Source: Escherichia coli | GTDB taxonomy: Bacteria; Pseudomonadota; Gammaproteobacteria; Enterobacterales; Enterobacteriaceae | Reading direction: 5' to 3' (one strand) | Assembly (NCBI RefSeq): GCF_024223415.1 | Contig: NZ_CP100500.1 | DNA: 64,000 nucleotides | In this document: one piece after another, positions 28,830-28,962 of the stretch | Layout of the letters: each line of letters begins with the position of its first letter | Position numbering within the stretch: position 1 is the first letter of the stretch | The notes under the pieces: model-generated | What the model saw: only the letters and a program-made list of their open reading frames with translations | Database searches by the model: none | Told to the model about the DNA's origin: nothing | Position numbers and translations under genes: made by a program

Positions 28830-28859
28830 GATGCTCTCCCAAATATGAAATCTCTTGCT

Positions 28860-28880
28860 GGCATTACAAGAATCATGCCA
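28860..28880 (-). promoter_or_regulatory. Candidate sigma-54 promoter of pspG (TGGCAT-N5-TTGTA)
   Basis: Minus-strand TGGCATGATTCTTGTAATGCC fits -24 GG and approximates -12 TTGCA; pspG is sigma-54/PspF dependent in E. coli. Confidence 0.5.
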
Positions 28881-28962
28881 AAAATAATCTATTGATTTAA
28901 CAGCAAAACGCCCCGCGAATTTGCGCAGGGCGTGGTGAATTTGACTACTTTTTGGTGAAAAG

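Follow-up and report, generated by a model that had tools for sequence, protein, structure and literature searches.

The interval 28830-28962 of the window (the whole stretch of 64,000 nucleotides that was analysed, from the E. coli chromosome, where the genes run dnaB-qorA-pspG-dusA) corresponds exactly to the dusA-pspG intergenic region, and we conclude with high confidence that it is the native, already characterised sigma-54/PspF-dependent promoter of the envelope-stress gene pspG, in which the T at -12 is wild type and conserved. This T is neither a defect nor a peculiarity of the strain, and its conservation across species, as judged by sequence comparison, suggests that selection has kept it as a signature of the PspF regulon. 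The sequence-only reading had proposed a candidate sigma-54 promoter, TGGCAT-N5-TTGTA, with GT rather than GC at -12; the element is present on the minus strand (28880..28865) and is the pspG sigma-54 promoter, and the sequence bears out the GT (28867-28866, minus strand). The features of the region are as follows.

28587..28829, minus strand: pspG coding sequence, 80 aa plus stop, start codon ATG at 28829-28827 (translation; 100% identical to E. coli PspG loci and annotated as pspG in the matching genomes).
28834..28840, minus strand: Shine-Dalgarno sequence GGGAGAG of pspG (sequence; conserved in a footprint of 81 aligned sequences).
28854 (about), minus strand: predicted +1, placed from the -24/-12 geometry, 12 nt 3' of T(-12).
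28865..28880, minus strand: sigma-54 core promoter of pspG, TGGCAT-GATTC-TTGTA (sequence, K-12 identity and conservation).
28885..28897 (-43..-31), minus strand: predicted IHF site, a perfect match to the consensus, AATCAATAGATTA (WATCAANNNNTTR).
28904..28933 (about -79..-50), minus strand: dusA intrinsic terminator with a 10-bp stem, a 6-nt loop and a T-tract (fold, MFE -19.1 kcal/mol).
28919..28921, minus strand: three-base variant of the terminator loop, AAT where K-12 has CCG (K-12 comparison).
28933..28959, minus strand: putative PspF enhancer (UAS), the direct repeat TTCACCA-N13-TTCACCA, conserved in the 81 sequences.
28963..30000, minus strand: dusA coding sequence, whose stop TAA (28965-28963) bounds the intergenic region and whose 5' end was placed by the 1,038-nt K-12 annotation.

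The minus strand from 28880 to 28865 reads TGGCATGATTCTTGTA and lies 35 nt 5' of the pspG start codon. Its GG at 28879-28878 (-25/-24), within the TGGCA of TGGCAT (28880-28875), is as expected for the sigma-54 class, and the GG-N10-GT spacing and the orientation upstream of pspG also match the geometry of the class; the TGC that the class carries at -14 to -12 is replaced by TGT, a change of C to T, with the GT at -13/-12. The predicted 5' untranslated region of pspG is 25 nt long, in agreement with the 25-nt distance given by Bonocora et al. 2015. The bare motif was not found more often than expected by chance in the window, neither as the consensus with 2 mismatches (35 matches, 41.8 expected) nor as the exact pattern TGGCAY-N5-TTGYW (1 match, 0.56 expected). 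The promoter is considered real because of its position, its conservation and the published experiments on the identical K-12 sequence, and not because of the bare motif.

According to the sequence-only reading, identity with a functional K-12 sequence would make this simply the native promoter, and this is what the comparison showed: from -60 to the ATG the sequence is identical in MG1655 and C600, the promoter is functional there, and we are therefore dealing simply with the native pspG promoter. The K-12 gene (also named yjbO) is preceded by the same TTGGCATGATTCTTGTA, the same IHF-type site, TTCACCA repeats and Shine-Dalgarno sequence, the sole difference in the interval being a run of three bases in the dusA terminator loop. 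Since the promoter core is as in K-12, the strain is not unusual at the pspG promoter. In the sigma-54 ChIP-seq study of Bonocora et al. 2015 (PMC4591121), site OS40 upstream of pspG, with the sequence TTGGCATGATTCTTGTA to which the core promoter in the window is identical, had a fold-above-threshold (FAT) value of 15, was located 25 nt from pspG and was flagged as experimentally confirmed. The dusA/pspG spacer was also recovered in vitro with purified RpoN holoenzyme by gSELEX (Shimada et al. 2021, PMC8743547), and on the pspG promoter sigma-54 together with PspF1-275 yielded open complexes and abortive products (Zhang et al. 2015, PMC4641871). PspF was reported to bind a single UAS at pspG, whose induction was 20-fold (Mehta et al. 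2013, PMC3709507). In Salmonella LT2 the pspG site is TGGCATGATTTTTGTAAG, with a ChIP-chip value of 39-fold that was the highest among the entries seen of the published table, and the LT2 pspA site is TGGCACGCAAATTGTATT.

Both the pspG promoter and the occurrence of GT at psp promoters are thus already in the literature. To this we add a modest increment, consisting of a tally of pspG promoters from 80 species and the finding that, among E. coli sigma-54 sites, GT is nearly exclusive to the PspF regulon. The latter comes from the -12 dinucleotides of the 135 high-stringency sigma-54 sites in Tables 1-2 of Bonocora et al. 2015, in which positions -13/-12 were GC at 124 sites, GA at 6, GT at 4 and TC at 1. 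GT is hence a recognised minority variant (4/135 E. coli sites) that does not bar a site from membership of the sigma-54 class. The four GT sites are those of pspA, pspG and ygeW and one antisense intergenic site, so that both PspF-dependent promoters fall within this 3% minority; if four GT sites were placed randomly among the 135, the probability of both PspF promoters receiving one would be about 7e-4.

pspA, the one other PspF-dependent promoter besides pspG, has the same -24 and -12 elements (TTGGCA...TTGTA), including the GT, as stated by Zhang et al. 2015 (PMC4641871), and a direct comparison of MG1655 pspA (TTGGCACGCAAATTGTA) with the window (TTGGCATGATTCTTGTA) confirmed the identity of this PspF-regulon core. 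Both promoters also carry an IHF-type AAATCAA...AGAT just upstream of -24 and, farther upstream, TTCRCYA repeats spaced by 20 bp. They differ in the number of UASs, two for pspA (at about -118 and -98) and one for pspG (repeats at about -105 and -85), and in their induction, which is 100-fold for pspA and 20-fold for pspG; in that the regulatory region of pspG, unlike that of pspA, also holds the terminator of the upstream gene; and in that pspA shares the TTGTA of pspG but not the AAT that follows it. A common ancestry of the two promoters was considered and rejected, given that their local alignment score (18) was equalled in 96 of 500 shuffles (shuffle mean 15.9 ± 2.4), and on the sequences compared their similarity is at the level of motifs only. 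Huvet et al. 2011 had already called the GT of pspA "unusual" and conserved in "almost all species", in an analysis that left pspG aside.

The conservation of T(-12) at pspG was evaluated within E. coli and beyond. A search with the 35-nt core (-38..-4) returned matching records from 5,400 of 5,426 E. coli genomes, and 5,396 of the 5,401 matching records were 100% identical over the aligned part; among the variants sampled, all changes lay outside the GG and the GT. A version of the 65-nt core with C in place of T at -12 had no identical E. coli record in an identity search, which a C accompanied by a second change would escape. Across 80 Enterobacterales species, ranging from Escherichia to Yersinia, Rahnella and Brenneria and examined by a protein-anchored, unbiased scan, the -12 element upstream of pspG was TTGTA in 75 (about 94% of the sampled species), TTGAA in 3, TTGGA in 1 and TTGCT in 1. 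The consensus form TTGCT was found solely in Salmonella enterica subsp. diarizonae, where it lies about 84 nt 5' of pspG. The GG was kept in 79 of the 80 species, and conservation extended to A(-11), A(-10) and T(-9), past the usual sigma-54 consensus. The 5-nt spacer occurred in 13 variants over the same 80 species, with positions -21 (43 T, 36 C), -19 and -16 varying freely, and the near-constancy of the -12 element against this background shows that it is far more constrained than its neighbours. It should be considered that the 80 species are related by kinship, so that 75/80 overstates the number of independent observations. The literature search retrieved no earlier account of the pspG half of this conservation, which extends the observation made at pspA.

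Two departures from the usual arrangement were noticed in the same scan. In Citrobacter werkmanii the TTGTA is kept, about 51 nt upstream, but TGTCAT replaces TGGCAT at -24, a change that should cripple sigma-54 binding. In Yersinia vastinensis and Brenneria (two sequences) the distance from TGGCAC-N5-TTGTA to the pspG start downstream of it is 109-206 nt, where 50-62 nt is usual, which implies inserted leader sequence.

A simple account of T(-12) would be that it is a tolerated, neutral deviation, the product of drift at a degenerate position, and merely inherited. Sigma-54 does tolerate GA, GT or TC at -12 in 11 of the 135 bound sites, and a functional comparison of T with C at psp promoters was not found in the literature search. 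A neutral site should nevertheless vary as the spacer does, and it does not: T occupies -12 in 75 of 80 species, only one of the 80 has taken the one-step transition to the consensus C, and T is conserved independently at pspA (Huvet et al. 2011), the coincidence of GT at both PspF promoters being in addition improbable under random placement. We therefore regard neutrality as unlikely. Another possibility is that TTGTAAT (-15..-9) is kept for a second, overlapping signal, for instance a sigma-70-type -10 element (TGTAAT) or the site of some other protein. The conserved stretch does exceed the sigma-54 consensus at A(-11), A(-10) and T(-9), TGTAAT matches TATAAT at 5 of 6 positions, and the dusA/pspG spacer was also an in vitro gSELEX target of NtrC (Shimada et al. 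2021, PMC8743547). However, a sigma-70 scan detected no promoter-like site at the pspG core, TGTAAT has no A at the critical position 2 and no acceptable -35 element 16-18 bp upstream, psp control in E. coli and Salmonella was reported to be entirely sigma-54 dependent (Huvet et al. 2011), and pspA does without the AAT. An overlapping signal appears very improbable.

The sequence-only reading had further supposed that the GT would make pspG more activator-dependent, and this supposition is unsupported. The reasoning behind it would be that GT weakens the -12 element, closed complexes form more poorly and pspG leans harder on its activator than it would with a consensus element. An activator is already obligatory at every sigma-54 promoter. 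In favour of a weaker element, C is the consensus base at -12 in 124 of the 135 E. coli sites and T lowers the score (the PSSM score of pspG is 10.7, the best in Tables 1-2 being about 14), and the induction of pspG is just 20-fold compared with 100-fold for pspA. On the other hand, pspA carries the identical GT and is still induced 100-fold, and sigma-54 occupancy is not low at either promoter, with FAT values of 15 (pspG) and 21 (pspA) where the 42 intergenic sense sites have a median of 11, in addition to the 39-fold value among the Salmonella table entries seen. Reviews assign the dominant role in closed-complex formation to the -24 element, and describe -12 as part of a regulatory centre that also involves Region I of sigma-54 and the fork junction and that blocks melting. 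A non-consensus -12 has moreover been linked to bypass, that is, activator-independent transcription: according to Schaefer et al. 2015, who cite Wang, Guo & Gralla 1999, alteration of the TGCA at -12 raised bypass transcription at glnAp2, and Schaefer et al. 2015 also describe bypass in vivo at promoters with a non-consensus -12. The glnAp2 mutants resemble pspG in having a non-consensus base in the TGCA of the -12 element, and differ in being engineered versions of an NtrC-dependent promoter, the pspG deviation being natural and conserved. A stronger dependence of pspG on its activator due to the GT is thus improbable; if anything, by analogy with glnAp2, the pspG promoter may be slightly less tightly locked rather than more activator-dependent.

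The working of the native promoter can be described by the following scheme. Sigma-54 RNA polymerase binds TGGCAT-N5-TTGTA as a closed complex. PspF binds farther upstream, the probable site being the pair of conserved TTCACCA repeats directly 3' of the dusA stop, and a DNA bend at the IHF-type site would bring it to the polymerase. PspF then spends ATP on opening the DNA some 12 nt 3' of T(-12), and pspG is induced when, under envelope stress, PspA releases PspF. Within this scheme T(-12) would act on the regulatory centre at the -12 fork junction and not on binding strength, tuning the ease of PspF-driven opening and possibly a basal expression that serves the PspA-PspF feedback loop. PspF, common to pspA and pspG, is a scarce bEBP devoid of a regulatory domain (Mehta et al. 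2013, PMC3709507). We tentatively propose, at a confidence just short of even, that T(-12) has been selectively maintained across Enterobacterales as a signature of the whole PspF regulon (pspA and pspG), retuning the lock formed by Region I and the -12 fork junction for efficient opening by PspF and for basal PspA; this functional reading draws on the conservation and on the glnAp2 mutants, which belong to a different promoter. The two PspF promoters with their conserved, rare GT offer a natural test case of the balance that the -12 base strikes between silencing and activator-driven opening in sigma-54 transcription.

Upstream of the core, the footprint of conserved blocks begins directly 3' of the dusA stop with a block, TTTTCACCAAAAAGTAGTCAAATTCACCAC, that holds both TTCACCA repeats (28959-28953, at -105, and 28939-28933, at -85), 20 bp apart. 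The remaining blocks are the stems of the dusA terminator, ATCA...TTA in the IHF match, TTTGGCA.G.TT.TTGTAAT and the Shine-Dalgarno sequence. The counterpart of the repeats in the pspA enhancer is TTCGCCA-N13-TTCGCTA at -118 and -98. An ungapped comparison of the pspA UAS with the pspG region gave at best 18-20 identities out of 36, not above chance (shuffle mean 16.8), and a two-repeat pattern derived from pspA, allowing 3 mismatches, had 12 matches in the window against 7.3 expected, which is not significant. From its sequence and conservation, the TTCACCA repeat block is most likely the PspF UAS. The predicted IHF site sits between these repeats and the -24 element; the IHF pattern is weak alone, with 8 matches in the window where 2.9 were expected, and its ATCA and TTA are conserved across species. 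Lloyd et al. 2004 reportedly found pspG to be activated by IHF as well.

The dusA terminator is flanked by the putative PspF enhancer on one side and the predicted IHF site on the other, an arrangement kept across genera, and would therefore lie within the loop that the DNA forms at the pspG promoter. The stems of its hairpin (28933..28908) are conserved across species and the loop is variable. The AAT allele of the loop was present in approximately 46 of 5,426 E. coli genomes (about 0.8%) and leaves the hairpin energy unchanged. With it a further CAAATTC arises, exactly 20 bp 3' of a conserved CAAATTC, and this new copy forms a third unit that keeps the phase of the two conserved TTCACCA repeats in the putative enhancer. 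A templated (quasi-repeat) mutation would fit such a change.

On the other side of pspG, 3' of the gene, the stretch 28420-28530 (minus strand) is identical at 111 of 111 positions to the sRNA PspH annotated in MG1655 (b4758), and it ends at a bidirectional terminator (28429-28451) common to the convergent qorA.
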